From a virus (taxonomy: Duplodnaviria; Heunggongvirae; Uroviricota; Caudoviricetes): a stretch of DNA of 35,687 bases. The stretch is taken from the IMG/VR virus record IMGVR_UViG_2690315992_000010; one strand, 5' to 3'. Of this stretch, positions 1,447 to 35,687 are shown piece by piece; positions within the stretch are counted from its first letter, which is position 1, and every line of letters begins with the position of its first letter. The notes under the pieces are model-generated. The model was not told the DNA's origin. It worked only from the letters and a program-made list of their open reading frames with translations, and did not search any database. A program made the translations under genes and the position numbers.

Positions 1447-1486
1447 GCCCCTATCGTTATAATACGCGGTAGGGGCGTTTTTGTTT
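1447..1486 (+). terminator. hairpin with T-tract between secreted-protein gene and recombinase gene
   Basis: GCCCCTA...TAGGGGC stem around a TTATAATA centre, followed by GTTTTTGTTT. Could be a terminator/attenuator or a recombinase-associated palindrome. Confidence 0.4.
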
Positions 1487-1495
1487 GGAAATGGT

Positions 1496-3175
1496 ATGAA
1501 AACTAAACTGTATTCGTATATTCGTTTCTCGTCTATGCGTCAGAATGATGGTTCGAGTTATGAACGACAAATCAGGATGGCTAGAGAGATTGCGGTAAAG
1601 TATGACCTTGAACTGGTAAATGATTATCAGGATCTGGGTGTATCTGCGTTTAAGGGTGCTAACTCCAAAACAGGGGCGCTATCTCGTTTCCTTGATGCAA
1701 TAGGTAGATCCGTTCCTGTTGGTAGCTGGCTATTCATCGAAAACTTGGACCGTTTATCCCGTGCCGATATTGTCAGTGCGCAGGAGTTATTCCTTTCAAT
1801 CATCCGTAGGGGGATAACCATTGTTACTGGCATGGATAACAAGATCTACTCGCTGGATACTGTTACCGCTAACCCGATGGACCTGATGTTCTCCATCCTT
1901 TTATTCATCCGTGGTAATGAGGAAAGCCAGACTAAGCGCAATCGTACTAACTCAAGCGCACTGATTAAGATTAAAGCTCATCAAGAAAATCCACAAAATC
2001 CGGCTGTTGCAATCGAGGAAATTGGAAAGAATATGTGGTGGACTGATACCACATCTGGTTATGTGCTTCCTCATCCGGTCTTCTTCCCTATTGTTCAGGA
2101 AGTTGTGGAATTACGCAGGAATGGACGGTCAACCGCCGAGATACTGGATCACCTTAACGCGACATACACACCACCACCAGCCGCAAGTCACAAGAGGCAT
2201 TCAAACTGGTCACGGGCAATGATTGAAAGGTTGTTCCATACCCGCGCTTTGATTGGTATCAAGGAAATCTCTGTAGATGGCGTTAAGTATGAGTTAAAGG
2301 ATTATTATCCTCGTGTGCTAGATGACGCTGAGTTTTATCACCTTAAGAAAAGCATTGGTGTTAGAGCATGTAACTTTGGAGACAAAGAAGAAGTTAAACC
2401 TATTCCCTTGCTTAGTGGTGTTGGTCTATTGAAATGTGAACATTGCGGTTCCGCTATGGTTAAGGTGAAAGGAACAAACAGACGGCCTAACCAATATCGT
2501 TATTCATGCGATGCAATGCGCTCTAGTCGTATTGAATGTGTGCATACAAACTGGAGTTTTCGCGGCGACCAATTAGAGAAAGCTGTATTGCAATTGCTGG
2601 CTGATAAAATCTGGATTGCTGAAGATAAGGCTAATCCGGTTCCGGCTTTGAAAGTACAGATTGATGAAATATCACGCAAGATTGATAACCTGATTACCCT
2701 TTCTGCTATGACAGGAGCAACGAAGGAGCTAGCCGATCAGATTACTACCCTCAATAGCGAGCGTGAAACACTCTACAATCAAATTAAGATGGCAGAAGAG
2801 GAAATGTATTCTGTTGACTCTCAAGGCTGGGAGAAGCTCGCAGAATTTGATTTAGAAGATGTTTACAACGAGGATCGCATTAAGGTCCGGTTTAAGATTA
2901 AGCAAGCTCTAAAACGGATCGGGTGTAGCAGGATTGACAAGTACAAAAACTTGTTTGTACTGGAATACATCGATGGCAAGACCCAGAGAGTTGTAATAGA
3001 AAATTCAAGAGGACCGAGGAAAGGCCGGATCTTCGTTGATTTGAAGACTATCAATGATAGGCAGATTCTGGAGAGTAACGGGCTTGTTCTGCATCCATGT
3101 TTAGACATGCTGACAGATAAGAACTGGAAACCAGAAGAAGAAATACCAGGTCCATTACAGGAATTTGGAATTTAA
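1496..3175 (+). CDS. large serine recombinase (putative serine integrase)
   Basis: N-terminal resolvase-type catalytic domain (YIRFSSMRQ...SYERQ, GVSAFKG, ENLDRLSRA), then recombinase domain, Cys-rich zinc-ribbon (CEHCGS...YRYSCD...CVH) and coiled-coil; 559 aa from ATG 1496. Track start 1481 is TTG; ATG 1496 is in frame. Confidence 0.8.
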   Translation: MKTKLYSYIRFSSMRQNDGSSYERQIRMAREIAVKYDLELVNDYQDLGVSAFKGANSKTGALSRFLDAIGRSVPVGSWLFIENLDRLSRADIVSAQELFLSIIRRGITIVTGMDNKIYSLDTVTANPMDLMFSILLFIRGNEESQTKRNRTNSSALIKIKAHQENPQNPAVAIEEIGKNMWWTDTTSGYVLPHPVFFPIVQEVVELRRNGRSTAEILDHLNATYTPPPAASHKRHSNWSRAMIERLFHTRALIGIKEISVDGVKYELKDYYPRVLDDAEFYHLKKSIGVRACNFGDKEEVKPIPLLSGVGLLKCEHCGSAMVKVKGTNRRPNQYRYSCDAMRSSRIECVHTNWSFRGDQLEKAVLQLLADKIWIAEDKANPVPALKVQIDEISRKIDNLITLSAMTGATKELADQITTLNSERETLYNQIKMAEEEMYSVDSQGWEKLAEFDLEDVYNEDRIKVRFKIKQALKRIGCSRIDKYKNLFVLEYIDGKTQRVVIENSRGPRKGRIFVDLKTINDRQILESNGLVLHPCLDMLTDKNWKPEEEIPGPLQEFGI

Positions 3176-18800: not shown

Positions 18801-19229
18801 ATTTTTATTAGCGTTGATGGTATCCGACAATTCAGCTTTAACACCAGCAAGATCGGAAGCAGCTTTATTTTTATTGGCCTCGATTGTCGCGTCGGTTTCG
18901 CGTTTAATTACATCAACTTTATTGTTAATTTCTGCGTGATTTGCTGCGATGGTTGCATCAGTAGTTTGTTTAATTTCATCTACTTTAGCGTGAATATTGC
19001 GGTCGTTTGCTGCAATTGTGCTATCTAATTCTTTCTTGTTAGCATCAACTTTAGATTCTAGTGCCGCGTGAGTTTCAGGAGAAACAGAGATTTGAACTAC
19101 TTCATGATCTCGGTCTTTGGTAAAAATAACATGGTCTTTAAGGTTGATTGCTACCTCACCGACCTGTAATTGTTCCGGCGTTGGTTTTTTGCCAGAAACA
19201 TTAGTTCGTTTAAATTGGATTGATTGCAT
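15804..19229 (-). CDS. long (side) tail fibre with C-terminal intramolecular chaperone / S74 autoproteolytic domain
   Basis: 1141 aa; N-terminal ~33-aa repeat units (DxTIAAN...KVDxIKxxTD); C-terminus ...GRELGVIAQDVEKVMPEAVHV...TISVSSINALFVKAFQEL matches the chaperone domain of endosialidase/L-shaped-fibre type proteins. Confidence 0.8.
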   Translation of the reverse strand: MQSIQFKRTNVSGKKPTPEQLQVGEVAINLKDHVIFTKDRDHEVVQISVSPETHAALESKVDANKKELDSTIAANDRNIHAKVDEIKQTTDATIAANHAEINNKVDVIKRETDATIEANKNKAASDLAGVKAELSDTINANKNAAAVATQELDTRINKKVDDIKSRTDATIASNHKAINDKVDLIKAETDRTIAANQAYAENQLTDTYNNLTGVIAANKQEAADSVAALTRDVEAKNTAIHSKIDNNKVYTDSELARLESRIDAADGSADGKYIKKHVNTYTDGYLLSKTANYFDDPNARNLDYFGAFRMNDLAGHIAMILHVPHPSGVNHARGFEFTYGSNPHATVRTYGYDELGNLSYSHRMYHEGDKPTPAEIGAYSKAEIDRLFQKTLNFGIEGGWFKLGSLTLPQQHGRSAKIRLVGGNGYNVGMNGQANIIELVIRCGNNSPKGVVFNAYYSIWYHEQHFCAIPTDGDNYDLYAYYGAHTGFVLAEYQVSSGGVSLNLLDTPEYLGGEKPVADEIFDALNISSFNNVSNRGTLNFAGNHQGQYDIEHMNEQQTNSKKMLRRFRSSAPATIWHESVDDQNYRLATGYDDVNQQLLLSAATGLHVKRLTLDGGVGNAGIDIRRGPNESSHFNFMDYRTGQDVRNGWFGFGDLTTKDFIWWNDNGQNSINLIEDGELHITGGKGQKIVMNSEVALSENARLAVKGGNYGLMLRNDGSSFHILTTDLKDSFGSWNNRRPFSYDFADGGLYLGGTATARCLHLGIDGSTRLEDNLFFKAGSRQSMDYMELVHWGASNTGRNNVLSLRDSKGFLAEFERLWDNTTKNTFFGKMKINRGSDAIIMNAESGDSSVYLLGTCADNNNWYIGKGGGDNGLAFYSYATNAAINLTNAGDIALSPKGVEMVHVNNARLYVHGERWTASQPGDWGNQWRVEAPIFVDHGYVGQDCYYPIVKARSLITNQGYTTAVDFGMRRIPNNWGQAIIRVGSAENSPDNGHPQAVFEFHHDGFFYTPGNGSFNDVHIRSDERLKINKEELEEGALDKLNSLTVYSYDKVKSLSDDTVVGRELGVIAQDVEKVMPEAVHVCSDGDTENPGEIKTISVSSINALFVKAFQELTTKYDAMNEELKAVKAELAAIKSCK

Positions 19230-25181: not shown

Positions 25182-27086
25182 TTAGAACGATGTTACCCAG
25201 CTACGGCCTCTATTTGGGCGTCTGGCGATGTTTTTACGTTGTGGTCGTGTGATTGGCTTATTTTCTTCGATTTGCTCGTCAGATTGCGATTTAGGAGCTT
25301 CTACGGATTCTTCTGGTTCACGGTTCAAACTATCTTTGATGGCTTCGAGTTTTTCCCATGACATTTTATTGAGTACATGGCGATAACTAGCCACCGCATA
25401 GGTTAGGCAGTCCAAGCCCTCGTTGCGTTGCTGACCAACTTTTACCCAACGTGTGGTATTACCCTGCCGTTTCAACTGTTCAGATAGCAATTGCTCGCAG
25501 TAGTCATCAGGAACGTCACCAATCTGGAAGACCGTATGAGGATCGCTGTCTCTCAAGTTCCGGTTAATCATTTCACGGATCATCGTCTTAAGGTTGTTTA
25601 CGCCCAGAATTTTAAGGGTAAAACCGCCCGTTCTTGTGTCTTTTACCGGAAGGATTGGAGCATCAACATTACTTGCGCCCTTAATGGCGCATAGATTTTG
25701 CCACCTAGTGCAAAAGCGGTAGATCACTTGCGTAGCTCGTCCGTTTGATGAGTCCACGAAAGCGGATAGCATCGGGATTCGTTGACCGGATCGGGTATAG
25801 AATTTTGCTTTCAGGAAGTTGTAAAGCTGGTCATATGCTGGTGATTCGTGGCGTTCGCAGTTCACATCATAGAATGATCGGTGATCAACTACGCATATCC
25901 CTTTACGAGAGATACCCAGCAAGGTAGATTCCAGACGGTCTTTTTGCTGGTCAACTCCACCTACCAGAGCCAAAACATCATCAGGAATATTATCTAAGCT
26001 AATGTCAGTTTTCAGCGTTTCCAGTTCGTCGGCTGTGCGGTCTTCGTTAAGATCATCGAAGGTTTCACCGAGCACCACATTATAGAACGTTGCCAGCGAC
26101 ATATTCGCGTAGCTATCAGCAAAGTCCACCACACACGCACGGATAGAACTAAACGGAGACATAAGGCGGTTAGCATGAAAACCGATTACTTCCGCATTTG
26201 GTTCGGTGGCGACCCATTCTCCCTGAGCAACAGCACGGAGGCGATCTGGTTCTGACCAATCAGTTTCACATGACGGGCAACGGTAAACGGCTGTGTCTGG
26301 ATTCGGCAGTGATTTACCATTGATTACATGCCAATCAAAGAATACTCTACTCCATTCCATTACGTGTTTGTGTCCGCAATGCTGGCAAACGACGTGGTAT
26401 TTTCTTTTATCCGAGAGTTCCCATTGTTGGTTTATCGCCCCATCCCGCGAAGTTGGAGTAGAAGCAATTACGATCCTTGCATCATCACCGAAAGTGGTTG
26501 CGCGTTGTTCCGCTAGCTGGATCGGGTTCCCTTCGTCTGACTCATCAGCCGCATCAACTTCATCAAGAATAATCAAAGGTAGTGTTTTACCGCGAAGATG
26601 TGATGGACTATTCAACGACATGAAATACATGAATGATCCGTTACGAAGCTGAATAATCGATGAGTTGTTAACGGCATTGCGATCTGACTTGTCGGTGATC
26701 ATCGCCTTTAATTCTGGGGTTGCCTCTAATACTGGCTTCACCTTACCCGCGATCCAGCTATTCAACTCGCGGACGTTTGCTTGCAAAACACCTATATTAG
26801 TGGGGTTGCTGGCGATCCTATGAAAGATAATACCGTTTAGCACAAGAGTTTTACCCAACTGCGCCGAGCACTTTAGCACAATTTTTCGCCTATCTTCGGT
26901 GATCGCGTCCATCATCCCACGTTGGAAAGGATGCAATTTAATTAGCGATCCGGCTTTAACACCATCGGTTGCAACTACATTAGCCTCTACCCATTCGCTA
27001 GGTTTCATGGCTTTAGGTGGGCGAATTGCAGCAGAGATATTTCTGAGAATCTTTTTTAATTTTGCCTTATTAGAAATCAGTTTCAT
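25182..27086 (-). CDS. terminase large subunit (GpA family)
   Basis: 634 aa; Walker A-like KCSAQLGKT, IASTPT motif, Cys-rich zinc-finger-like segment (CQHCGH...CPSC), size similar to lambda gpA; GAGGGTAA RBS before ATG 27086. Confidence 0.8.
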   Translation of the reverse strand: MKLISNKAKLKKILRNISAAIRPPKAMKPSEWVEANVVATDGVKAGSLIKLHPFQRGMMDAITEDRRKIVLKCSAQLGKTLVLNGIIFHRIASNPTNIGVLQANVRELNSWIAGKVKPVLEATPELKAMITDKSDRNAVNNSSIIQLRNGSFMYFMSLNSPSHLRGKTLPLIILDEVDAADESDEGNPIQLAEQRATTFGDDARIVIASTPTSRDGAINQQWELSDKRKYHVVCQHCGHKHVMEWSRVFFDWHVINGKSLPNPDTAVYRCPSCETDWSEPDRLRAVAQGEWVATEPNAEVIGFHANRLMSPFSSIRACVVDFADSYANMSLATFYNVVLGETFDDLNEDRTADELETLKTDISLDNIPDDVLALVGGVDQQKDRLESTLLGISRKGICVVDHRSFYDVNCERHESPAYDQLYNFLKAKFYTRSGQRIPMLSAFVDSSNGRATQVIYRFCTRWQNLCAIKGASNVDAPILPVKDTRTGGFTLKILGVNNLKTMIREMINRNLRDSDPHTVFQIGDVPDDYCEQLLSEQLKRQGNTTRWVKVGQQRNEGLDCLTYAVASYRHVLNKMSWEKLEAIKDSLNREPEESVEAPKSQSDEQIEENKPITRPQRKNIARRPNRGRSWVTSF

Positions 27087-27129
27087 GTAATTACCCTCAT
27101 TACGAAATATGAAGGTATTTATTAAATTG

Positions 27130-27158
27130 TTGATATTTTGATAAATACGGGTATTAAG
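27130..27158 (+). promoter_or_regulatory. candidate sigma70 promoter for rightward gene 27175 (divergent from terminase)
   Basis: TTGATA - 16 bp - TATTAA upstream of AAGGGGGGG RBS. Confidence 0.3.
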
Positions 27159-27174
27159 ATTTAAGGGGGGGTGT

Positions 27175-27780
27175 ATGCTAATTAATCAGCAACAAAGAGA
27201 TGCATTAGAATTAGCCTTTTCTTGTTGTACCGATCATGAATATCGTTTGCCAGTTAAGCACCATCACAAGAAGACTGATTACACAACATCTGGCTTTAGT
27301 CGTGAGGAAGCTAAACAGATTTTAATCGAGTTGTATCGCGATCATGGGTATACCGATATTCATAACTTCTTTAAGAAGCATCGTACATCACAGACAGAGT
27401 TTAATAGAGTTCGTGAATGGTTTGATTTTGACATTAAGCGATTCTATCGAGTAGATGACGGTCCTATCTATCGGTTGCAGTGGACACCGATTAGGGAAGT
27501 GCTTAAACAGAAGAGATTGAATCATGCCATTACACGCTATCGTAATGTGGCTTTTAAGAAAGGCTATGGTGATTCAAGGGAATTGTTTGTAGAACTCGCT
27601 AACGTGCGATATAGCCACTATTACAGGAATCCTAAAGAGTTCTTCGAAGTGCTGCGCAAGGTTGATATTAGTCGGGGTACATATTATTCACGGTTGAAGA
27701 AGTACGGGATTAAGGCAGAGTTCTTTATGTCGGTTGACGATGGAGAACTTTTTCCGATAAAATGTAAGTCCTCTAAATAA
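27175..27780 (+). CDS. helix-turn-helix protein of unknown function (paralogue family member 1)
   Basis: 201 aa; contains FSREEAKQILIELYRD and C-terminal ISRGTYYSRLKKYGI segments that recur in the two small proteins at 27810 and 31471. Confidence 0.5.
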   Translation: MLINQQQRDALELAFSCCTDHEYRLPVKHHHKKTDYTTSGFSREEAKQILIELYRDHGYTDIHNFFKKHRTSQTEFNRVREWFDFDIKRFYRVDDGPIYRLQWTPIREVLKQKRLNHAITRYRNVAFKKGYGDSRELFVELANVRYSHYYRNPKEFFEVLRKVDISRGTYYSRLKKYGIKAEFFMSVDDGELFPIKCKSSK

Positions 27781-27809
27781 AGGTGAACATTCACTTTAAT
27801 TTGGAGAAA

Positions 27810-28043
27810 ATGACTATGACTACTAAAGCTACTCGCGGTCGCCCTGCCCGTTTTAACGCTGAACAGATGGCTGATATTGCCTACGCTTATTATACAGCGG
27901 ATCGTGGTAAGGAAGCGAAAGAACAGATTCTTAGTGAACATGGGATCTCAATCGCCCAATTCTATAAGAATATGAAGAAGTTGGACATTAAATTCTATGT
28001 TCAGATCGGTGATGGTCAGATCGTAGAAGCAACAGGTTTTTGA
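27810..28043 (+). CDS. small helix-turn-helix DNA-binding protein (paralogue 2)
   Basis: 77 aa from ATG 27810 (GGAG RBS); RGRPARFNAEQMADIAYAYY...ISIAQFYKNMKKLDI. Track start 27783 is GTG. Confidence 0.5.
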   Translation: MTMTTKATRGRPARFNAEQMADIAYAYYTADRGKEAKEQILSEHGISIAQFYKNMKKLDIKFYVQIGDGQIVEATGF

Positions 28044-28058
28044 GTTTTGATTCTCTTT

Positions 28059-28082
28059 GCCACTCTTCGGAGTGGCTTTTTT
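28059..28082 (+). terminator. intrinsic terminator
   Basis: GCCACTC-ttcg-GAGTGGC followed by TTTTTTG. Confidence 0.7.
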
Positions 28083-28203
28083 GTATGTAAAACAATCGGC
28101 GCAAAACTGCGCTCATTTCTAAGTTGAGTCCAAATCTGGACTGATCTATAGATGCATCCAAATCTGGAGGGATGCGCTTAAAGTTCAGCGCATCTACAGA
28201 TAC

Positions 28204-28228
28204 AAAAAAGCCCCTGAAATTCAGGGGC
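28204..28228 (-). terminator. intrinsic (bidirectional) terminator after Rha operon
   Basis: AAAAAA-GCCCCTGAA-at-TTCAGGGGC-AAAAATT; its right half is the TTCAGGGGCAAAAAT motif that forms the iteron array at 30.7-30.9 kb. Confidence 0.65.
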
Positions 28229-28236
28229 AAAAATTA

Positions 28237-29070
28237 TTACAGTCCGAAGACTTCCAGAGAGCCAGCATTCTGACGAATCAGCAAAGCAGTGTTATTAATG
28301 ATTGCTCGTGAGTTATTCGGCTGTGGCAATTTCAAAGTTGCGGCCTTTTCTTCTTCAAGCAATCCGAGTTTTACGAGATGCGGGATAGCATCAGCAGTGA
28401 ACTCGATCTGACCGTGTGCCGACATACGAGCGAACATATAGCCAGGAGGAAGCAGATCATAGCCTTTAGGCTTACCAGAAGCATCCAGACGACGCTCAAG
28501 AACACCAGCAGCACATAAACCTTTCAGAATCATTTGTACCTTCGTAGAGCCTCGTTTTTCGCCTAATAAGCGGCTAAGACTGTGTGCATCAATAGCTTTA
28601 CGGATATGAAGATCAACTAATTGTTCTTTTTCTTGAATCAGTTGTTCGTTTGCGGCTTCTAATTCCATTGCCTCACGAATCCAATCGAGCTTAGTCATGT
28701 TTGCGTATGGGTTGACTTGCTGAGAACGCAGTTTTTCATTTTCTTCTTTCAGTCGTTTCCATTCCTGAATAACAACCATTCGACGCTTAACATCGTAACC
28801 AGTGACAAGAGTCAGAGTCATTTCTTCGTCTAGTTGATATTCGTTTTGTTCGCGTCCGTATTGGTCAAAATAGATGACGCGAAACTTCGCGTGATCTTCA
28901 TAACCTAGAGCATTCAACATCTTAGTTATATCAACTTTAACTTTGTGGTGTTCTTTTCCGGTAAATTCAGCGATCTGACGAGAAGACATGGTCAGTGGTT
29001 TGGTGTTATCAACAACCAGAGACACGGAAGCAGTTTTAACAGCAGTATTCATAGTAGTAACAGTATTCAT
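28237..29070 (-). CDS. Rha-family phage regulatory protein / antirepressor
   Basis: N-terminal LTMSSRQIAEFTGKEHHKVKVDI matches the Rha-domain signature; ~150-aa C-terminal antirepressor-like domain. Confidence 0.65.
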   Translation of the reverse strand: MNTVTTMNTAVKTASVSLVVDNTKPLTMSSRQIAEFTGKEHHKVKVDITKMLNALGYEDHAKFRVIYFDQYGREQNEYQLDEEMTLTLVTGYDVKRRMVVIQEWKRLKEENEKLRSQQVNPYANMTKLDWIREAMELEAANEQLIQEKEQLVDLHIRKAIDAHSLSRLLGEKRGSTKVQMILKGLCAAGVLERRLDASGKPKGYDLLPPGYMFARMSAHGQIEFTADAIPHLVKLGLLEEEKAATLKLPQPNNSRAIINNTALLIRQNAGSLEVFGL

Positions 29071-29159
29071 AGTAAAAATTCCCCTTAAACGGTTTAGTGA
29101 TTTGGTCCTCCTAGTTCCGGCATCTCAACCGGAACAATTTTATTTATGATAGAAATTTA

Positions 29160-29492
29160 TTACCAATCGATTTCTACTTGGTCTTCTTCATAATAAGGAA
29201 TCGCATATTCATAACGCCAATTTTCGATGATTTCACGTTCTTCATTAGTAAGAAGGTGATTGTTAACTGGAGTCGCATTGTGATTACCAGCTTCGAATTG
29301 CTCGCGAACTTCCAGCATTGCATGAATACCAGTTAAGGTCATCAGATCAAACGGAACATGCATACTACGGGAGATAGTTTCACGGGATACACCCCAATCA
29401 TTTTCTACATGGCTAGGGGTTACAGAAACGGTTTTGCCGGAGATTTTAACAGTCCAGTCATACAGGGATTTAGTGATGGTAAATTCTTTCAT
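29160..29492 (-). CDS. hypothetical protein
   Basis: 110-aa ORF with AGAGGA RBS, first gene downstream of promoter at 29549-29577. Confidence 0.5.
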   Translation of the reverse strand: MKEFTITKSLYDWTVKISGKTVSVTPSHVENDWGVSRETISRSMHVPFDLMTLTGIHAMLEVREQFEAGNHNATPVNNHLLTNEEREIIENWRYEYAIPYYEEDQVEIDW

Positions 29493-29548
29493 GTTACATC
29501 CTCTTTACAAATCTAGGTCAAATAGGTTCAAAGTTGTCAAGCGCGATA

Positions 29549-29577
29549 ATCATAAAAAAGTCAGAAATTTTTGTCAA
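29549..29577 (-). promoter_or_regulatory. candidate sigma70 promoter (leftward) overlapped by palindromic operator
   Basis: Minus-strand -35 TTGACA (29577-29572), 17-bp spacer, -10 TATGAT (29554-29549). Palindrome TTGTCAA-tacccc-TTGACAA at 29571-29590 overlaps the -35. Confidence 0.4.
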
Positions 29578-29612
29578 TACCCCTTGACAAGACGCCAAAG
29601 GGTTGACCTAAC

Positions 29613-30071
29613 TTACAGCATATCTAAGCCTTCATCGTAACCGTAGAAGCCACCGTGAGAAGAGAAAGCGATTGGTGCGTAGTCTTCGTCTTCCTCATCT
29701 TGTTCTGGGGCTTCCTGAGCGGTTTCTTTACCGTAATTAAACATTGCTTCATCCAGTTCACGAAGAGTCAAGAAGCTACCCAGGTCAATGTCACCGGAAC
29801 GGACTTGAAACGGCAGATCATCACGAACAATAATTGCTGGTAGATTCTGGTACTTTAAGCGTTCTTCATCGGTGAAGACGTTAACAACAATGGTCGGCTT
29901 CTTATTACGGCAAAACGCATACCATGCACTAGAGAAATGGGATTCATCAGAGTTGAAAAGGATGTTATAACCACGTTCACGGAACATCTTCATTAACTTG
30001 TCATTGTGGAAGCTATCAGAATCCAGACCCAGAAGGATAAAAGGAGTAGTGGTAGTCATCTTGTGGTTCAT
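29613..30071 (-). CDS. hypothetical protein with acidic C-terminal tail
   Basis: 152 aa, GAGGA RBS; C-terminus EAPEQDEEDEDYAP; no domain recognised. Confidence 0.5.
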   Translation of the reverse strand: MNHKMTTTTPFILLGLDSDSFHNDKLMKMFRERGYNILFNSDESHFSSAWYAFCRNKKPTIVVNVFTDEERLKYQNLPAIIVRDDLPFQVRSGDIDLGSFLTLRELDEAMFNYGKETAQEAPEQDEEDEDYAPIAFSSHGGFYGYDEGLDML

Positions 30072-30713
30072 AGTGGAAATCCTCTAAAAGAAAGTGAATC
30101 AAACAAATTACACTAGTATTTATAACGAGAATTTTTTATCTATTTGGAAGGGATTGGTATTCAGTCGGGCATAGCCCTCCTTCATAGATTTTGATTAAAT
30201 CATCATCAAAACGAAGAAGTATCTTTAGAATATAAGAATCTTTCTTTCGAAGAAAGAATAATCAGGAAGCAATTTCAGCAACCGCAGGTTGCGATCCCGA
30301 AGGGATAACCAATACCTTTCTAGAAAGTGATTGTTACTCACTTCGTTCGTTTACTAGAATCAGTTATCATCTAGTATTAAAATCCCTTTCTAAGAAAATC
30401 CTTTCAAAAGTGATTCTCGATGCCACGCAGTGGCGTCGCAGACGTTTGAGAGTGAGCGAAGCGAGCGAGCAAACTAGTTAATTCCTTCTAAGACCATCTA
30501 GTATCATCTAGTTTAAATTAGTTGTTACTAGAAGTAATTGGTTAGCGCTACGCGCAGTCGGGCAAAGCCCTCCTAATATCTTTTTGGTTATTTTTGGTTT
30601 TACACATGAGCGTAGCGAATGTGTTATATAATATCTATGCACGCCCGATTCCCCGTTTTTACCCCTCACTAAGTTAATGTTTTATAAAGAGTTTTTCTTA
30701 CCAATCCTTTTCG

Positions 30714-30906
30714 GGGGCAAATTTCAGGGGCAAAAATTAGATTTTAAGGGGCAATTATTGGCATTTCAGGGGCAAAAATGAGGGGCAAAATCACTGTTTC
30801 CCAGAATTTCAGGGGCAAAAATAGTGGGTTTCAGGGGCAAAAATGGGATAGTGGAATCTTGGGTATTTTGGTTCGGGGGCAAAATTCAGAATTTCAGGGG
30901 CAATTC
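30714..30906. repeat. array of ~9 direct GGGGCAA(A/T) iterons (5 copies of full TTTCAGGGGCAAAAAT)
   Basis: Core starts near 30715, 30727, 30749, 30770, 30782, 30811, 30832, 30876, 30897; spacings mostly 12 or 21 bp; non-coding. Confidence 0.6.
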
Positions 30907-30993
30907 CCATCAAATATTTTGATAGAAAATTCTTGTATATTATTTAATCAAAAAATCACCAAAAAGTGGCGTAAGTTAATGATTTAAAAAGAA

Positions 30994-31019
30994 TTGTCAA
31001 AAGGTCTCCGTGCTATAAT
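30994..31019 (+). promoter_or_regulatory. candidate extended -10 promoter (rightward)
   Basis: TTGTCAA at 30994-31000 and TGcTATAAT at 31011-31019. Confidence 0.35.
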
Positions 31020-31099
31020 AGGTTATAAAGGTTGATAATCCTGATCTACCATTTTCAAACAAAAATTTTGATAGTCATTTCTCGCTTAGGTCAAGTGTA

Positions 31100-31128
31100 T
31101 TGACAACTGTCAAGGATTATTTTATACT
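31100..31128 (+). promoter_or_regulatory. candidate strong sigma70 promoter (rightward) with palindromic -35 region
   Basis: TTGACA (31100-31105), 17-bp spacer, TATACT (31123-31128); -35 lies in palindrome TTGACAACTGTCAA. Confidence 0.5.
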
Positions 31129-31263
31129 TTTTCTCACTGGTGGGGGTTGAAATTTTCTAAACAGTCCCCATATAGATGATAAGCAAGAATTTCCACGTTA
31201 TAAATACATGTGTGAAATGATTGTTCACTTCTGAAAATCTCCTGATCCACTGCTAATTCATAC

Positions 31264-31291
31264 AGCACTGGTTAGATATACAGTGCTTTTT
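31264..31291 (+). terminator. intrinsic terminator-like hairpin (possible end of a ~160-nt small RNA)
   Basis: AGCACTG-gttagatata-CAGTGCT followed by TTTT. Confidence 0.4.
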
Positions 31292-31415
31292 CGGTTGAAT
31301 ATTGTACGAATTGATTAATAATTAATCTTCTCTTTAGCAATTCGTGCTCCCACTGATCGGATATACAGTGGTTTTACAGGGTTTTCTGAAAATCATTTTA
31401 TAAATACAAGTGTTC

Positions 31416-31436
31416 AGAGCGAAATGCTCTTTTTTA
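31416..31436 (+). terminator. attenuator hairpin immediately upstream of gene 31471
   Basis: AGAGC-gaaat-GCTCT followed by TTTTTT. Confidence 0.45.
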
Positions 31437-31470
31437 AGAAATTATTAATCCACATGTGAGGAATCGACTG

Positions 31471-31650
31471 ATGGCTAGACCTGTTAAGTTCACTCGTGAA
31501 ATGATTGTTGATATTGCTAAACGCTTTTACAGCGACACTGAGCGAGGCGGGGAAAACTTCTTTAAGAAGGAAGGAATTGATAGAAGCGGATTCTACAAGC
31601 TAATGAAGAAATACGAAATTCAGGTAAAGATTAACGTTCAAGTTTGTTAA
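31471..31650 (+). CDS. small helix-turn-helix DNA-binding protein (paralogue 3)
   Basis: 59 aa from ATG 31471 (GAGGA RBS); ARPVKFTREMIVDIAKRFY...IDRSGFYKLMKKYEI parallels the 27810 protein. Track start 31456 is GTG. Confidence 0.5.
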   Translation: MARPVKFTREMIVDIAKRFYSDTERGGENFFKKEGIDRSGFYKLMKKYEIQVKINVQVC

Positions 31651-31765
31651 TCCACTTTCACTGAGAATTATATGATGGCTTTAAAAAAAGAAAAAGCCTC
31701 CCTTGTTGCAGCAAAGGAGGCTTGAAATGAACAATTAAAACTAACTTTCTACAGGAGTATTTATA

Positions 31766-32710
31766 ATGTTATTTTCCGCTAACTTTTTCACTAACGAAGT
31801 AACCAACGCTAAAGCAGTTATCAAATTTGGCACCGAAGCAAACAAGAAGATTCAGCCGAAAGTTGTTGTTCATGTTTCCTTTGCGCAGCAGAAATCCGCT
31901 TTCGCTGGCTTTAAAGCACATCGTGAAGCACTGATCGCGGCTGGCTTTGGTGTTGACGGTAAACTGCCTAACGGCATTCGTAAAGCAATCGACCGCGTTA
32001 AACCTGCTAAAGACGTTGCAGTAGACCACATCGTTACTTTCACCGTTAAGAACTCTTCTGAACTGTTCCACCTAGTGATTGCTGGTGATACTGCTATCGT
32101 TTCCGCTCCTAACATGGATTTTCAGGATACCGCTGATTGCAACATTACCTTTGGTCGTCGTAAAGAAGTTACCGGAAAAGCTAAACTGAACTTCACCAAA
32201 TCCGGCAATCCTTACTTTGCTGTATTCTTTAACAGCCACGCTACTGAGAAAGAAGTAGTAGAACTGGTTGCATATGAAGGTGAAGAAAAAGCACGTATTG
32301 AATCTTGCGACGCTTTCGTAGAACTGGAAGCACAGGTTAATGCTGTTTCTCCGGTTGCTGTTGAAGATCGTTTCTCTGCACTGGAAGCACAGATCGCAGA
32401 ACTGAAAGCTGCGCTGGAAGAAAAAGACCAGATCATCGAAGCACAGAAAGCTGAGATTGAAGAACTGAAAGCTAAAGAAGTTGCTCCGGTGGCAGTAGTT
32501 GAAAATGCGGCTGATGAGGCCGCAAATGATGAAGTAGAAGTGAAAATCGATGTGATGCGTGATCCGATGGCTGCACTGCAATTGCTTCGTTCTTTTAAGG
32601 GCAAATCTCATTTTTCTAGTGATGCGGTAGACGAGGAAGAAGAACAGAAACGCAATGTTGCAATGCTTCATGATGAAATGTACGGTACTAACTTTTCTTA
32701 CTGCCAATAA
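31766..32710 (+). CDS. hypothetical protein, apparently highly expressed (N-terminal globular part, C-terminal Ala/Glu-rich coiled-coil-like region)
   Basis: 314 aa; consensus AGGAG RBS 8 nt before ATG; codon usage strongly skewed to CTG/CGT/GGT/GAA/AAA/GCT; bracketed by terminators. No family recognised. Confidence 0.6.
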   Translation: MLFSANFFTNEVTNAKAVIKFGTEANKKIQPKVVVHVSFAQQKSAFAGFKAHREALIAAGFGVDGKLPNGIRKAIDRVKPAKDVAVDHIVTFTVKNSSELFHLVIAGDTAIVSAPNMDFQDTADCNITFGRRKEVTGKAKLNFTKSGNPYFAVFFNSHATEKEVVELVAYEGEEKARIESCDAFVELEAQVNAVSPVAVEDRFSALEAQIAELKAALEEKDQIIEAQKAEIEELKAKEVAPVAVVENAADEAANDEVEVKIDVMRDPMAALQLLRSFKGKSHFSSDAVDEEEEQKRNVAMLHDEMYGTNFSYCQ

Positions 32711-32714
32711 AAAA

Positions 32715-32732
32715 GGGACTCCGAAGAGTCCC
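32715..32732. terminator. bidirectional intrinsic terminator
   Basis: AAAAAA-GGGACTC-cgaa-GAGTCCC-TAGTAAGTTT; stronger T-tract on minus strand. Confidence 0.55.
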
Positions 32733-32806
32733 TAGTAAGTTTAGGTTAGGTTTGCACAACAAAGATGAACATAATGCTACATTATTCTTTAAAGCCAGAA
32801 AAATAA

Positions 32807-32824
32807 CCGCCTCTTTCGAGGCGG
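32807..32824 (-). terminator. intrinsic terminator (minus strand)
   Basis: CCGCCT-ctttcg-AGGCGG with minus-strand T-tract (TTATTTTTCT). Confidence 0.5.
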
Positions 32825-32981
32825 GAGGATTAATACTCAATCTATACTTGTTATGTTTTTATGTTGTATAGATCCTGACTATGAAAACACTGTACTGGAG
32901 TGTGTTTTATGGCTTTTAATCGGGAATCCTCAAAGAAGATCCCCTGTTAATAACCATAAGGAGAAAAGGCAGATTACACTA

Positions 32982-33155
32982 TTATTTAGTATCCTTTTTA
33001 CAGCAACTAAAAAGAATAAACAAAAAGAAGCATACCCAGCCGTAAGGCGTACCGATTAGAAATTTGAAAAACACCACCAGCGATATAAAAATCAATTTAA
33101 TGCCAGCGACGATAGTCAAAAACAGCAGAGTAGCAAAGTAGACAAAAAGATCCAT
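32982..33155 (-). CDS. small hydrophobic membrane protein, ~57 aa (two predicted TM segments)
   Basis: ATG ~33155 with AGAGGA RBS; MDLFVYFATLLFLTIVAGIKLIFISLVVFFKFLIGTPYGWVCFFLFILF...; not in ORF track. Confidence 0.25.
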   Translation of the reverse strand: MDLFVYFATLLFLTIVAGIKLIFISLVVFFKFLIGTPYGWVCFFLFILFSCCKKDTK

Positions 33156-33208
33156 AGATAATCCTCTTTGAAAACGACCATCATCTATAGTTCAATTCAT
33201 CGATTTAA

Positions 33209-33310
33209 TTAATTATACTTGAAAGCGTTACACAAAGTAGAAATGCCAATATGTGCCAGTGAATATACGATAGTTAATCCTACAGCCAGATAAATCAAAA
33301 ATTCAACCAT
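33209..33310 (-). CDS. small hydrophobic peptide, ~33 aa
   Basis: ATG ~33310 with GAGGA RBS; MVEFLIYLAVGLTIVYSLAHIGISTLCNAFKYN; not in ORF track. Confidence 0.2.
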   Translation of the reverse strand: MVEFLIYLAVGLTIVYSLAHIGISTLCNAFKYN

Positions 33311-33408
33311 AGGTAAATCCTCAAATAAGAAAAAGGTTAGCGGGGGATGTTCTCCCCCGTAGGCGTTGACCCATTCAACACCCTTCACATATATTTAGTA
33401 TCTAATTT

Positions 33409-33966
33409 TTACGACACATCAAATTCATCATCTTCTTCTGGTTCTTGTTCTTCCGGTTCATCCATTAATGGTAATTCTTCTTCCTCGTCTTCTCCCAAAT
33501 CTGCATTTTCGAACAAGTCCCCTACTTCATTTAAACGACGCTCGATGATCTCCCTTAGCTTATTCTTCAATGTTTTCTGGTCAGTTGCAGATTCGAGAAT
33601 TTCTAAAGCGTCGATTGTGGCGATCTGCAAAATAGTCTGTTTCACTTTCCCGCAGTATTCCGCTAGTTGCTGTTCTACATAACCGACAGGAATCAGGAGA
33701 TTCATTTTTTCCTGGTTCTCTCGTTCGGCTGCATCTGCCATTGCTCTTTCTCTGCGGAGACGTTCTTGATCAATCGCTTCTTTGATTGAAGTTTGTTTAA
33801 GTGGGTTAATTACGTTCTTTAGCACCCAATCGCAACCTTCCTTTGCTGGAACACGCCTCTTATTGGTATTGTAAGGTAGTCCCCTTTCTAACCATCGCTT
33901 ACCGCCACCATTCAATGTATAACCATATAAACGGGAAATTTCTGTAAGGGTTAATTCTTCTTTCAT
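33409..33966 (-). CDS. terminase small subunit (Nu1-like) candidate
   Basis: N-terminal HTH segment LTLTEISRLYGYTLNGGGKRWLERGLPY resembles the Nu1 DNA-binding domain pattern; central coiled-coil; strongly acidic C-terminus; GGAGGA RBS; palindromes and GC-rich site just upstream. Confidence 0.5.
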   Translation of the reverse strand: MKEELTLTEISRLYGYTLNGGGKRWLERGLPYNTNKRRVPAKEGCDWVLKNVINPLKQTSIKEAIDQERLRRERAMADAAERENQEKMNLLIPVGYVEQQLAEYCGKVKQTILQIATIDALEILESATDQKTLKNKLREIIERRLNEVGDLFENADLGEDEEEELPLMDEPEEQEPEEDDEFDVS

Positions 33967-34043: not shown

Positions 34044-34090
34044 CGAAGGGAAAGATCCAGTAATGGTAAGGGTTAGGAAGGGGGTTAATA

Positions 34091-34109
34091 GTCGCGTAGC
34101 GACCGCGCC
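34091..34109. other. candidate cos nicking region (GC-rich island with dyad symmetry)
   Basis: GTCGCGTAGCGACCGCGCC in AT-rich context ~125-145 bp upstream of the Nu1-like start, the position expected for cosN in lambda-like genomes. Inference only. Confidence 0.25.
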
Positions 34110-34324
34110 ATGAGTGAAGTGATCACGTTTTAAAATCTCACACGCACATCAAATACCGGGGTGCCGAAAACTCCCTTTATTTCATCCGTGGAACAGTACC
34201 TTTTTAATTTGTCAAGCATTAATTTCTTAATTTAATTACTAAATCTCATCCCAATAATTGAAAAAATATCAAAAATCAATAAAGTAAGCATCTAAAAGTC
34301 AGTCCATACCAAAAGAGGTATAAA

Positions 34325-35104
34325 ATGAAAAACATTATCGCTGCTATCGTGCTTTCTGCTACTGCTTTCGGTGCTGATGCTGCGTCCTTTGATTGCACTA
34401 AGGCTACTACCAAATCAGAGAAGTTTATTTGTGCTAACGAGTCTATCTCCGCACTGGATTCGAAACTTCATGAAGTATATGTTAAAGCTGTTAAGATTGA
34501 TCCATCTCTGAAACAAGAGCAACGCAACTGGAATAAAACTGTTCGTGATACAATGATCAATATCGGGCAGATTCAGCCACTGGAGGCTGTATACAACGCT
34601 CAAATCCAAAACTTGATGAATGTATTATCTAAAGAAGAAACCGCGTCAGAGAGCGATTCAGAGACTTCTGCGAAGGTTGAAGAAGAACAACCGAAACAGG
34701 AAGAAGTAAAGAAACTGAATGTTACCGCGATTTACGCATGTACTACAAAATTTACATGGAAAGTTATCGATGGTGAGGAAACAGAAGCTGTAAAAGATAA
34801 ACTCTACGGAAACAAAACTTTTGATAATAACGGCGGTAAACTTAAGATCAAAATGGTAGACGATGTTCCGGTATCTTTTGTGTATTCCGACAAGTATGAT
34901 GTTTATAAATCAAGTCTCAAGCCATCTAAAGAGAATCCAAACGCAATGGAAGGTAAATCCAAACAGGATACTATTGGACGTGTTAACACTTATAACATCT
35001 GGGTAAGCAAAAAAGGTGACATGCGTCTTGAAGTAATTGAACCAAAATTTGATTCTGAATATAAACACACTCAATTTGCATGTGACATGGTAGACGCAGA
35101 GTAA
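34325..35104 (+). CDS. secreted protein with DUF1311 / LprI-like N-terminal domain
   Basis: Signal peptide MKNIIAAIVLSATAFGADA; SFDCTKATTKSEKFICANESISALDSKLHEVY matches the conserved Cys-containing DUF1311 signature; AGAGG RBS. Confidence 0.55.
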   Translation: MKNIIAAIVLSATAFGADAASFDCTKATTKSEKFICANESISALDSKLHEVYVKAVKIDPSLKQEQRNWNKTVRDTMINIGQIQPLEAVYNAQIQNLMNVLSKEETASESDSETSAKVEEEQPKQEEVKKLNVTAIYACTTKFTWKVIDGEETEAVKDKLYGNKTFDNNGGKLKIKMVDDVPVSFVYSDKYDVYKSSLKPSKENPNAMEGKSKQDTIGRVNTYNIWVSKKGDMRLEVIEPKFDSEYKHTQFACDMVDAE

Positions 35105-35336
35105 GAGGTGAAATGATGCAATTCAATAGCATGAAGATTACTCAAAAATGGTGGGATGCGATGAAAGCTAACCACCAGAACGATATTAATTAAGTAACAT
35201 TTTAGATATACAGCACCCAGCTAACAGATCACCTTTTATGGATTTCATTATAACCCCTTTGATCTGGAAACTATGTTAATTAGTTGATTTCTAAGCCTTG
35301 TCCTTGTGATGGGGCTTTTTATTGCAAAATTTTTAG

Positions 35337-35687
35337 TTATTTTGGGTTGACTACATTCGGGTTGCCAATTCGCCAGGCTAACTCTTGCTGAGTGATTTCT
35401 GACTGTAAAAAAGCATTTAACAGCAATACTTTAGAGGCGACGCTCAAAGGTACTTCAATAAAGTGATCATGACTATTTAATGGCGAAGGTAACGGGATAA
35501 GCTCGTTATCTTCAAAATAAAAATCAAATGCGGTCAGTAAAGCATCTTTTGCCGCTTCCATCGCTTCAGCGACAGTTTCGCCCTGCGTCAACGCTTCAGG
35601 GATATCCACAAAAGAAACCATATAACCGCCTTCCGGCGCGGGTGTAAGAGTGACGGGATAACGCATAATTTCGACTGTCTCTCGCAT
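35337..35687 (-). CDS. hicB: HicB-family antitoxin, N-terminal domain only; C-terminal DNA-binding domain apparently truncated at junction with phage-like DNA
   Basis: MRYPVTLTPAPEGGYMVSFVDIPEALTQGETVAEAMEAAKDALLTAF... recognised as HicB N-terminal domain (recalled as near-identical to E. coli HicB; not verified). ORF ends ...ITQQELAWRIGNPNVVNPK* inside what should be the first helix of the HTH. Base composition and codon usage look more host-like here. Confidence 0.55.
   Translation of the reverse strand: MRETVEIMRYPVTLTPAPEGGYMVSFVDIPEALTQGETVAEAMEAAKDALLTAFDFYFEDNELIPLPSPLNSHDHFIEVPLSVASKVLLLNAFLQSEITQQELAWRIGNPNVVNPK

Follow-up and report, generated by a model that had tools for sequence, protein, structure and literature searches.

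A DUF1311/LprI gene with an exchangeable beta-barrel domain in an Escherichia coli prophage and lytic RB49-like phages: anatomy, evolutionary history and a tentative role in envelope protection

Proteins with an LprI domain (Pfam PF07007, formerly DUF1311) have been described in several bacteria. For LprI of Mycobacterium tuberculosis, the MliC domain was reported to suffice for resistance to lysozyme; in Salmonella, ScwA, a protein with an LprI domain, controls the levels of the lytic transglycosylase MltD, its overproduction leading to lysis (PMC7933661). In enterohaemorrhagic E. coli (EHEC), Etsi4, which is a DUF1311 protein, rescues cells from the periplasmic toxicity of Etse4, a cell-wall-targeting type VI secretion system (T6SS) effector (PMC12981562), and in loci of Pantoea, Salmonella Dublin and WHIX, LprI-domain genes adjoin T6SS effectors that are lysozyme-like or transglycosylases (PMC9796082; PMC8867033; PMC12135965). 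Here we describe a phage-borne gene in which a DUF1311 module is joined to a C-terminal beta-barrel. It lies at 34325..35104 (+ strand) of the Caudoviricetes record IMGVR_UViG_2690315992_000010, a stretch of 35,687 nucleotides that is called the window below, and is referred to as the DUF1311-barrel gene. The domain call is not new: the orthologue is listed in RefSeq as a 'lysozyme inhibitor LprI family protein', and a survey table of 2006 contains a marginal DUF1311 match (E = 0.2) for 'RB49ORF260c', which is probably the RB49p262 gene discussed below. Beyond this table entry, no paper was found that addresses what these phage genes do or how they are put together from modules. What is new is the orphan MliC-like barrel, the exchange of this barrel as a cassette with its signature in the synonymous divergence (dS), and the presence of one allele pool common to virulent and temperate phages.

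The gene is an intact open reading frame (ORF) with an ATG start and encodes 259 amino acids (aa); its coordinates are exactly those of the original prediction, an earlier reading of the sequence alone that had proposed a secreted protein with an LprI-type, lysozyme-inhibitor-like N-terminal domain. We regard it as a real gene because its product matches PHROG 14799 end to end (E = 3.7e-115), because homologues of the 259-aa protein form 21 protein clusters among 5.8 billion proteins, and because the N-terminal part is under purifying selection, with ratios of nonsynonymous to synonymous divergence (dN/dS) of 0.05-0.2. The first 19 residues, MKNIIAAIVLSATAFGADA (34325..34381, +), were recognised by inspection as a signal peptide of the signal peptidase I type: in MKNIIAAIVLSATAFGADA|ASFDC, a basic n-region and a hydrophobic core are followed by an A-x-A cleavage motif, and residues 1-18 are unstructured in the AlphaFold model, with a predicted local distance difference test score (pLDDT) below 50. 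The lipobox pattern [LVI][ASTVI][GAS]C has no match in the first 40 residues, Cys24 being preceded by SFD. Judged from this sequence, the protein is very probably exported to the periplasm via a Sec-type signal peptide.

The signal peptide is followed by a helical module of the DUF1311/LprI type (aa 20-105; 34382..34639, +), delimited by Pfam and AlphaFold. PF07007 matches residues 24-76 with 26.1 bits (E = 1.2e-5), the curated gathering cut-off of this family being 22 bits. Both the secretion and the N-terminal domain of the original prediction were borne out. Modelling with the family alignment gave helices at residues 30-37, 39-58, 62-80 and 83-105 (pLDDT about 80-88); neither a profile search of the Protein Data Bank (PDB) nor Foldseek with the protein model listed a solved DUF1311 structure. 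The module is near-invariant across the family, and this holds for the Cys24-Cys36 pair, for the start 'ASFDCxKA..E..IC...L..LD' and for the motif 'Q..W...R(D)', all of which are invariant. The nearest non-phage relatives are standalone DUF1311 proteins of about 120 aa with the same 'ASFDCxKA..E..IC' start; the nearest of their genes lie among bacterial housekeeping genes, a context that is uninformative. Between the module and the barrel lies an acidic, disordered linker (aa 106-130; 34640..34714, +), whose residues 106-129 have pLDDT values below 50 and which, by DNA identity, holds the left recombination breakpoint at about 34696-34705.

The C-terminal part (34715..35104, +; aa 131-259 with the stop codon included) encodes an orphan eight-stranded beta-barrel, which constitutes the swappable cassette. 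The full-length AlphaFold model places the beta domain at residues 132-258, and the barrel modelled alone is an eight-stranded up-and-down barrel (pLDDT 91.1, predicted template modelling score 0.84). Its first and last strands contain the conserved residues Cys139 and Cys253, and the protein probably has two periplasmic disulfides, Cys24-Cys36 and Cys139-Cys253. Hydrophobic and charged residues alternate in the strands, which argues for a soluble rather than a membrane barrel. An outer-membrane barrel of the Lom/OmpX kind was considered and rejected by inspection on the grounds of this alternation, the two cysteines and the lack of a C-terminal aromatic signal. In sequence searches the barrel stands alone: Pfam has no family for any of the C-terminal variants, the whole-family profile found only chance matches among PDB sequences, and a barrel profile retrieved only two fragments from 5.8 billion proteins and, from 1.84 billion representatives, only its own family and three PKD-repeat proteins, the latter being spurious as relatives according to Pfam. 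With the full model, Foldseek against the PDB returned only weak barrel matches, TbpB and fHbp, with E values of about 1e-3. In the fold search with the barrel, the matches of lowest root mean square deviation (rmsd) and highest coverage were closed barrels of the MliC/PliC type. This last result bears on the possibility that the protein binds a lipid or another small ligand, as a lipocalin- or YceI-like barrel would, or has another role unrelated to hydrolases, such as the capture of an envelope intermediate or of a signalling molecule. We consider such a role very unlikely, since the best matches by rmsd and coverage are closed, since the fusion to DUF1311 points to a hydrolase-binding theme, and since the variation of the barrel is spread evenly over strands and loops with no focus on a cavity.

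The gene is not confined to the prophage. The segment 34319-34705, which comprises signal peptide, DUF1311 module and linker, is 95.6 % identical at the DNA level to RB49p262, and a homologous hypothetical gene is carried by 56-59 records of Krischvirus, i.e. of RB49-like phages of the T4 type. The homology to RB49 begins only at 34319, so the region upstream of it is specific to the prophage. RB49p262 is located in a variable early region bounded by gene 52 and the holin gene t, on the same strand as the flanking gene 52; in T4, this gene and those around it belong to the early or middle class. A more divergent T4-like contig has a distant homologue at the same locus, with 45 % identity in the N-terminal module. 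Directly after RB49p262 follows RB49p261 (95 aa), and a remnant of 26 codons of this second gene, with a GAGGTG ribosome-binding site of its own, was recognised by DNA alignment in the prophage at 35113..35193 (+), behind the DUF1311-barrel gene. The stretch 35100-35180 shares 82.7 % DNA identity with the start of RB49p261, MMQFNSMKITQKWWDAMK being aligned to MQFNNMKITKDWWDAMR, and the gene has thus been cut down to a stub. That the gene is universal in Krischvirus, that the synteny reaches deeper among T4-like phages and that its neighbour is truncated in the prophage together point to its capture by the prophage from a T4-like phage, which would set the direction of transfer from T4-like phage to prophage. 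To judge from the alignment, a block of two genes appears to have been captured, with the RB49p261 stub as its footprint.

Within this shared gene, the two halves of the protein have different histories. In the family alignment, the first approximately 125 residues are near-invariant and the last approximately 125 fall into several types that are 26-45 % identical or cannot be aligned. In other E. coli strains with the same prophage at the same integration site, the gene hicB (see below), the flanks are 96-97 % identical, and the interval from about 34696/34705 to 35111/35276 is unalignable and encodes a different barrel. DNA identity to the other prophage variants and to RB49 stops at 34695-34705. 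At least three barrel types occur in the hicB-site prophage lineage, and every one of them, together with further types, is also present at the gene 52-t locus of T4-like contigs; the sequenced Krischvirus phages have two types, in 11 and 45 records, respectively. The same discontinuity is seen in the synonymous divergence. Between the window and the T4-like contig L008, dS is 0.26 in the N-terminal part and 1.98 in the barrel, where dN/dS is 0.11; between the window and RB49, the N-terminal value is 0.18 and that of the barrel is saturated, so that no barrel dN/dS can be calculated; and in the reverse case, the prophage L001, dS is 0.14 in the N-terminal part and 0.00 in the barrel, where again dN/dS is not calculable. 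Wherever dS could be estimated, the dN/dS of the barrel was 0.1-0.3. The jump in dS together with these low ratios shows the barrels to be old alleles, each under purifying selection. Positive selection or recent hypermutation of the barrel was considered as an explanation of the diversity and rejected, given the dN/dS of 0.1-0.3 and the age of the diversity. Between barrel types, hhalign of the window-type group with the P0015-type group gave a probability of only 12.6 %, the first strand and the two cysteines alone being aligned, and homology across all barrel types is therefore not shown by sequence. Taken as a comparison of sequences, these data show that intragenic recombination in the linker shuffles anciently diverged barrels onto a homogenised N-terminal module in lytic and temperate phages alike. 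Of the anatomy and evolutionary history of the DUF1311-barrel gene outlined so far we are highly confident.

Related modules were also encountered outside this lineage. In several phages, among them Klebsiella Marfavirus, T4-like phages of Aeromonas and the lambdoid phage ev099, an N-terminal DUF1311 module that is about 40 % identical is followed by unrelated C-terminal domains; the proteins of Klebsiella phage PWKp16 (L024), Escherichia phage ev099 (L025) and Aeromonas phage AS-sw (L026) have 230-250 aa. In PWKp16 the LprI-domain gene is located near the primase gene and a spackle gene, and in ev099 the gene with the module adjoins xis and int, a moron-like position. A gene of SSU5 that is annotated as 'lysozyme inhibitor LprI family protein' also matches the DUF1311 module.

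The prophage shares tail-fibre sequences with the RB49-like phages as well. Its side tail fibre gene (15804-19229, -; 1141 aa, with Gp34_trimer and an S74 chaperone) is 80-86 % identical over parts of its DNA to the Krischvirus gene for the distal long tail fibre gp37, and its protein is 39 % identical to gp37 of a T4-like contig. The mosaicism of the side fibre with gp37, taken together with the DUF1311-barrel gene, means that the prophage and Krischvirus groups evidently recombine. Related prophages show strong mosaicism in the side fibre as well as in the J tip.

These fibres are relevant for the function of the gene, because a variable periplasmic protein of a phage might serve in superinfection exclusion by receptor masking, as do Llp of T5 and Cor: the barrel would lock the phage's own outer-membrane receptor from the periplasmic face, with one allele for each receptor. 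Besides the variable domain of a phage-borne periplasmic protein, the distance of the gene to the adhesin genes gp37/gp38, only 2-3 kb in T4-like genomes, and the exchange of tail-fibre DNA between the prophage and Krischvirus speak for this idea. It predicts, against what is observed, that barrel and receptor-binding protein travel together. In EC416 the side fibre is 95.6 % identical and the barrel is different; the window-type barrel was found alongside two different J tips and several types of fibre, and a single J-tip type was seen with two types of barrel, the assignment of AP027619 in this comparison coming from its coverage class only. Among hicB-site prophages, the barrel type thus assorts independently of both the side fibre and the J tip. 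A lipid anchor, which Llp and Cor carry, is also absent here. Masking of the phage's own receptor was therefore rejected as the leading idea, and we now view it as unlikely.

Our preferred reading, to which we assign a probability of roughly one in three (0.35), is that the DUF1311-barrel protein acts in the periplasm as an exclusion or immunity factor directed against peptidoglycan hydrolases that enter the cell envelope from outside. The protein would reach the periplasm by export, either in the lysogen or in a cell that a lytic phage has just infected, and would there bind and neutralise a peptidoglycan-cleaving enzyme arriving from outside, so that the host cell of the phage would be protected. 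Candidate targets are the tail-associated lysozyme of a superinfecting phage and a muramidase-type toxin delivered by a T6SS or as a bacteriocin. In its action the protein would then resemble T4 Spackle or the immunity proteins of T6SSs, while being a member of neither family. In this mechanism, the DUF1311 module would provide a hydrolase-binding or periplasmic-anchoring activity, as in other DUF1311 proteins, and the barrel allele would decide which enemy enzyme is recognised. The target is probably external, for two reasons: the gene is autonomous both in a siphovirus prophage and in lytic myoviruses, whose lysis and tail genes differ, and the barrel type varies without regard to the side fibre and the J tip of the phage itself. 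A periplasmic location, a module associated with hydrolases, an MliC-like barrel, a stand-alone gene, ancient and diverse alleles and independence from the phage's own receptor-binding proteins together favour a protective binder of an incoming, polymorphic protein that attacks the envelope. In a wider version, which we put forward more tentatively still, a constant DUF1311 'handle' and interchangeable specificity domains (barrels here, other folds in the Klebsiella, Aeromonas and lambdoid phages) would form an unrecognised class of polymorphic phage exclusion or immunity proteins, each allele being directed against a different envelope attacker and traded by recombination between virulent and temperate phages. 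The attackers would then be muramidases of a T6SS or bacteriocin, or else the tail lysozyme or a tip protein of a phage, and the alleles would form a balanced 'immunity allele pool' across lifestyles.

The original prediction had also mentioned a modulation of lysis, and a regulator of phage or host peptidoglycan hydrolases could take the form of an endolysin buffer, of a device for lysis timing, or of a ScwA-like modulator of lytic transglycosylases. The effects of ScwA on MltD and on lysis fit such a role, as does the distance of a few kb to the holin gene t in T4-like phages, but this nearness reflects the conserved gene order of T4. The same alleles shuttle between a lambda-like siphovirus prophage and T4-like myoviruses whose lysis cassettes are unrelated, and a conserved enzyme of the host as partner would not predict a deep allelic diversity. 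Regulation of hydrolases therefore appears improbable, and modulation of lysis is less likely than protection of the envelope.

Several observations weigh against an exclusion or immunity factor of the kind proposed. No effector gene adjoins the gene, in contrast to T6SS immunity genes, and it is solely from position and strand that the gene is taken to be expressed in the lysogen and, in RB49, early. Of the 106 positions of the DUF1311 profile only 1-71 are matched, and the second cysteine pair, which is conserved near the end of the domain, is missing, the standalone proteins having R..C(G)....C where RDTMINIGQIQ is found here, which marks the module as a divergent, shortened branch of DUF1311. 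The barrel fold is generic, with Cap15, AlkL, designed barrels and TbpB-type barrels scoring about as well as PhiA of Brucella, and PhiA itself gave no inhibition in vitro. The MliC/PliC domain (PF09864) found no match at E values up to 10 in the whole protein or in 17 C-terminal domains. The SGxxY motif, the loop that lysozyme inhibitors insert into the active site of lysozyme (as defined in PMC8334348), is absent as well, the patterns SG..Y, S.SGA.Y and Y...TKG having 0 matches in 21 of 21 members, and neither PADLOC nor NCBIfam has a match. Finally, a spackle gene and a gene for an LprI-domain protein occur side by side in the genome of Klebsiella phage PWKp16, which suggests that the DUF1311-barrel gene is not simply a replacement of Spackle.

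Some of these absences concern yet another explanation, namely that the protein is a classical inhibitor of animal (c-type) lysozyme like M. tuberculosis LprI or MliC/PliC and shields the lysogen in the gut or in phagocytes. The Pfam name of the domain goes back to M. tuberculosis LprI, but the lysozyme inhibition of LprI is attributed to its MliC domain, and ScwA, which has an LprI domain, gave no lysozyme resistance (PMC7933661). The phage protein shows no MliC match in its sequence, none of the 21 members has SGxxY, and a lipobox is lacking. Moreover, the gene is standard in strictly lytic phages, the hosts of which survive only minutes after infection, and animal lysozymes are conserved, in contrast to a barrel that exists in many anciently diverged alleles. 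An inhibitor of animal lysozyme is thus very unlikely. Of the original prediction, the LprI-type domain remains, whereas a function in lysozyme inhibition is not supported as it stood, in view of the missing MliC domain, SGxxY motif and lipobox; protection of the envelope is still the best functional class, with a microbial or phage peptidoglycan hydrolase rather than animal lysozyme as the likely antagonist.

The assignment of the gene to the prophage follows from the integration site. At its right end, the window consists of the 5' part of hicB, and identity to hicB of E. coli K-12 ends at about 35362-35366, where alignment to K-12 hicB and the other junction in NZ_CP024141 place the crossover core between prophage and host, GGCAA on the hicB strand (35362..35366). 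Host DNA extends from 35362-35366 to 35687 (326 bp). In K-12, hicB is directly followed by ydcR; in NZ_CP024141, the prophage is inserted between two halves of hicB, with the 3' piece adjoining ydcR. The first two prophage genes beyond this 3' piece correspond to the first two ORFs of the window, and the third, a 'recombinase family protein', corresponds to the large serine recombinase gene at 1481..3175 (+). From this order it can be concluded that the window comprises nearly the entire prophage of about 35.3 kb plus the 326 bp of host DNA, the large serine recombinase having placed this E. coli prophage within the antitoxin gene hicB. The DUF1311-barrel gene is the last prophage gene, its stop codon being about 258 bp from the junction. 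Both the limit of hicB identity and the split of hicB in NZ_CP024141 assign it to the prophage, and an origin from the host backbone, which had been kept open as an alternative, does not hold. After integration, the 5' ORF of hicB has 116 codons (35337-35687, -) with the new tail …NPNVVNPK, and the 3' fragment is separate; the adjacent toxin gene hicA is frameshifted in the lysogens NZ_CP024141 and NZ_CP074033 and intact in NZ_CP122634 and NZ_CP124819.

On its other side, the DUF1311-barrel gene is neighboured by a divergent small-terminase-like gene (33409-33966, -; phrog_57), and the genes for the large terminase, the portal and the head lie deeper within the prophage. The gap of 358 bp between the terS-like gene and the DUF1311-barrel gene includes a G+C-rich island (34080-34110), in which GTCGC-GTA-GCGAC (34091-34103) forms a perfect palindrome; the island is a candidate for cos or for a site recognised by the terminase. 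The large terminase gene (25182-27086) is separated by about 6 kb from the small-terminase-like gene, an unusual arrangement; the intervening region 27087-33408 contains an anti-repressor/Rha-like gene (28237-29070) and several ORFs without PHROG, PADLOC or Pfam assignment, among them one for an acidic, coiled-coil-looking protein of 314 aa (31766-32710). A ribosome-binding site, AGAGG (34314..34318, +), was read from the sequence 6 nt 5' of the ATG. Upstream of it, a consensus scan identified a sigma-70 promoter-like site, TTGAAA-16 nt-TAAAGT (34258..34285, +), with 9 of 12 matches, although such a scan is weak evidence (six sites in the region versus 4.6 expected, by consensus match only). 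The transcription unit would be ended by an intrinsic-terminator-like hairpin with a T run (35293..35325, +; hairpin 35293-35317), again a consensus match only, whose stem of 10 pairs reads AAGCCTTGTC...GGGGCTT and is followed by TTTATTG. The gene, which has a promoter-like and a terminator-like site of its own, thus occupies a moron-like slot at the prophage edge, bordered by the terS/candidate cos region on one side and the host junction on the other, much as had been foreseen. Its G+C content is 38 %, that of the prophage is about 41 % throughout the window, and that of E. coli, about 51 %, is well above the prophage figure. In the T4-like contigs L008, L013, L015, L016 and L018, the holin gene is directly preceded, at about 1.5-2 kb downstream of the homologue, by a Tad2-like (anti-Thoeris) ORF, which makes this locus a hotspot for accessory and counter-defence genes.

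If the proposed function is correct, E. coli phages of opposite lifestyles draw on one stock of periplasmic defence alleles, and a new, testable player would be added to the competition among phages and between phages and bacteria at the cell envelope. It would also bear on how prophages affect the susceptibility of their hosts to therapeutic T4-like phages such as Krischvirus. Irrespective of function, the annotation 'lysozyme inhibitor LprI family protein' has to be corrected in so far as it rests on a domain without demonstrated lysozyme-inhibiting activity of its own, and the gene provides a clean natural case of cassette exchange at the level of a domain (dS about 0.1-0.3 in the N-terminal part versus about 2 or more in the barrel) as well as an example of the capture of a lytic-phage gene by a prophage.

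A comparison with the known systems shows both shared and distinct features. The LprI lipoprotein from M. tuberculosis (Rv1541c) is likewise exported and has an N-terminal DUF1311 domain followed by a small eight-stranded barrel, and in the model an eight-stranded antiparallel barrel clamped by a disulfide is predicted here, too; the phage protein differs in being soluble, without a lipobox, and in having a barrel that lacks the MliC signature and SGxxY and is polymorphic and exchanged as a cassette. PhiA of Brucella and the MliC/PliC family share only 12-13 % sequence identity with the barrel, which has no Pfam MliC match and about 125 instead of about 90 residues. With Spackle (Sp) of T4, a periplasmic inhibitor of the tail lysozyme gp5, the protein has in common the small size, the export, the occurrence in T4-type phages and the same proposed role in blocking a muramidase, but there is no sequence similarity, and to our knowledge Sp has never been described as a protein with a swappable domain. 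In RB49, tblastn with the Sp proteins of T4 and PWKp16 gave only chance-level matches in the regions covered (22 kb and 6 kb), which include RB49p262 and the stretch syntenic with the T4 sp locus (61-41). The DUF1311 immunity proteins of T6SSs (Etsi4 of EHEC and those predicted for Pantoea, Salmonella Dublin and WHIX) are also periplasmic, occur in Enterobacteria and plausibly neutralise incoming hydrolases. That of Salmonella Dublin has 146 aa with no second domain reported, and the T6SS immunity genes adjoin their effector gene, whereas the phage protein has two domains and its gene is phage-borne, neighboured in the prophage by the terS-like gene, the 26-codon remnant and hicB, and in T4-like phages by small early ORFs with no effector pair. 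ScwA of Salmonella, finally, is a soluble periplasmic DUF1311 protein as well, with conserved cysteines that are disulfide-bonded or predicted to be so and without an MliC domain; its LprI domain is C-terminal, the protein is all-helical and its gene chromosomal, whereas the domain described here is N-terminal, fused to a barrel and carried by phages.

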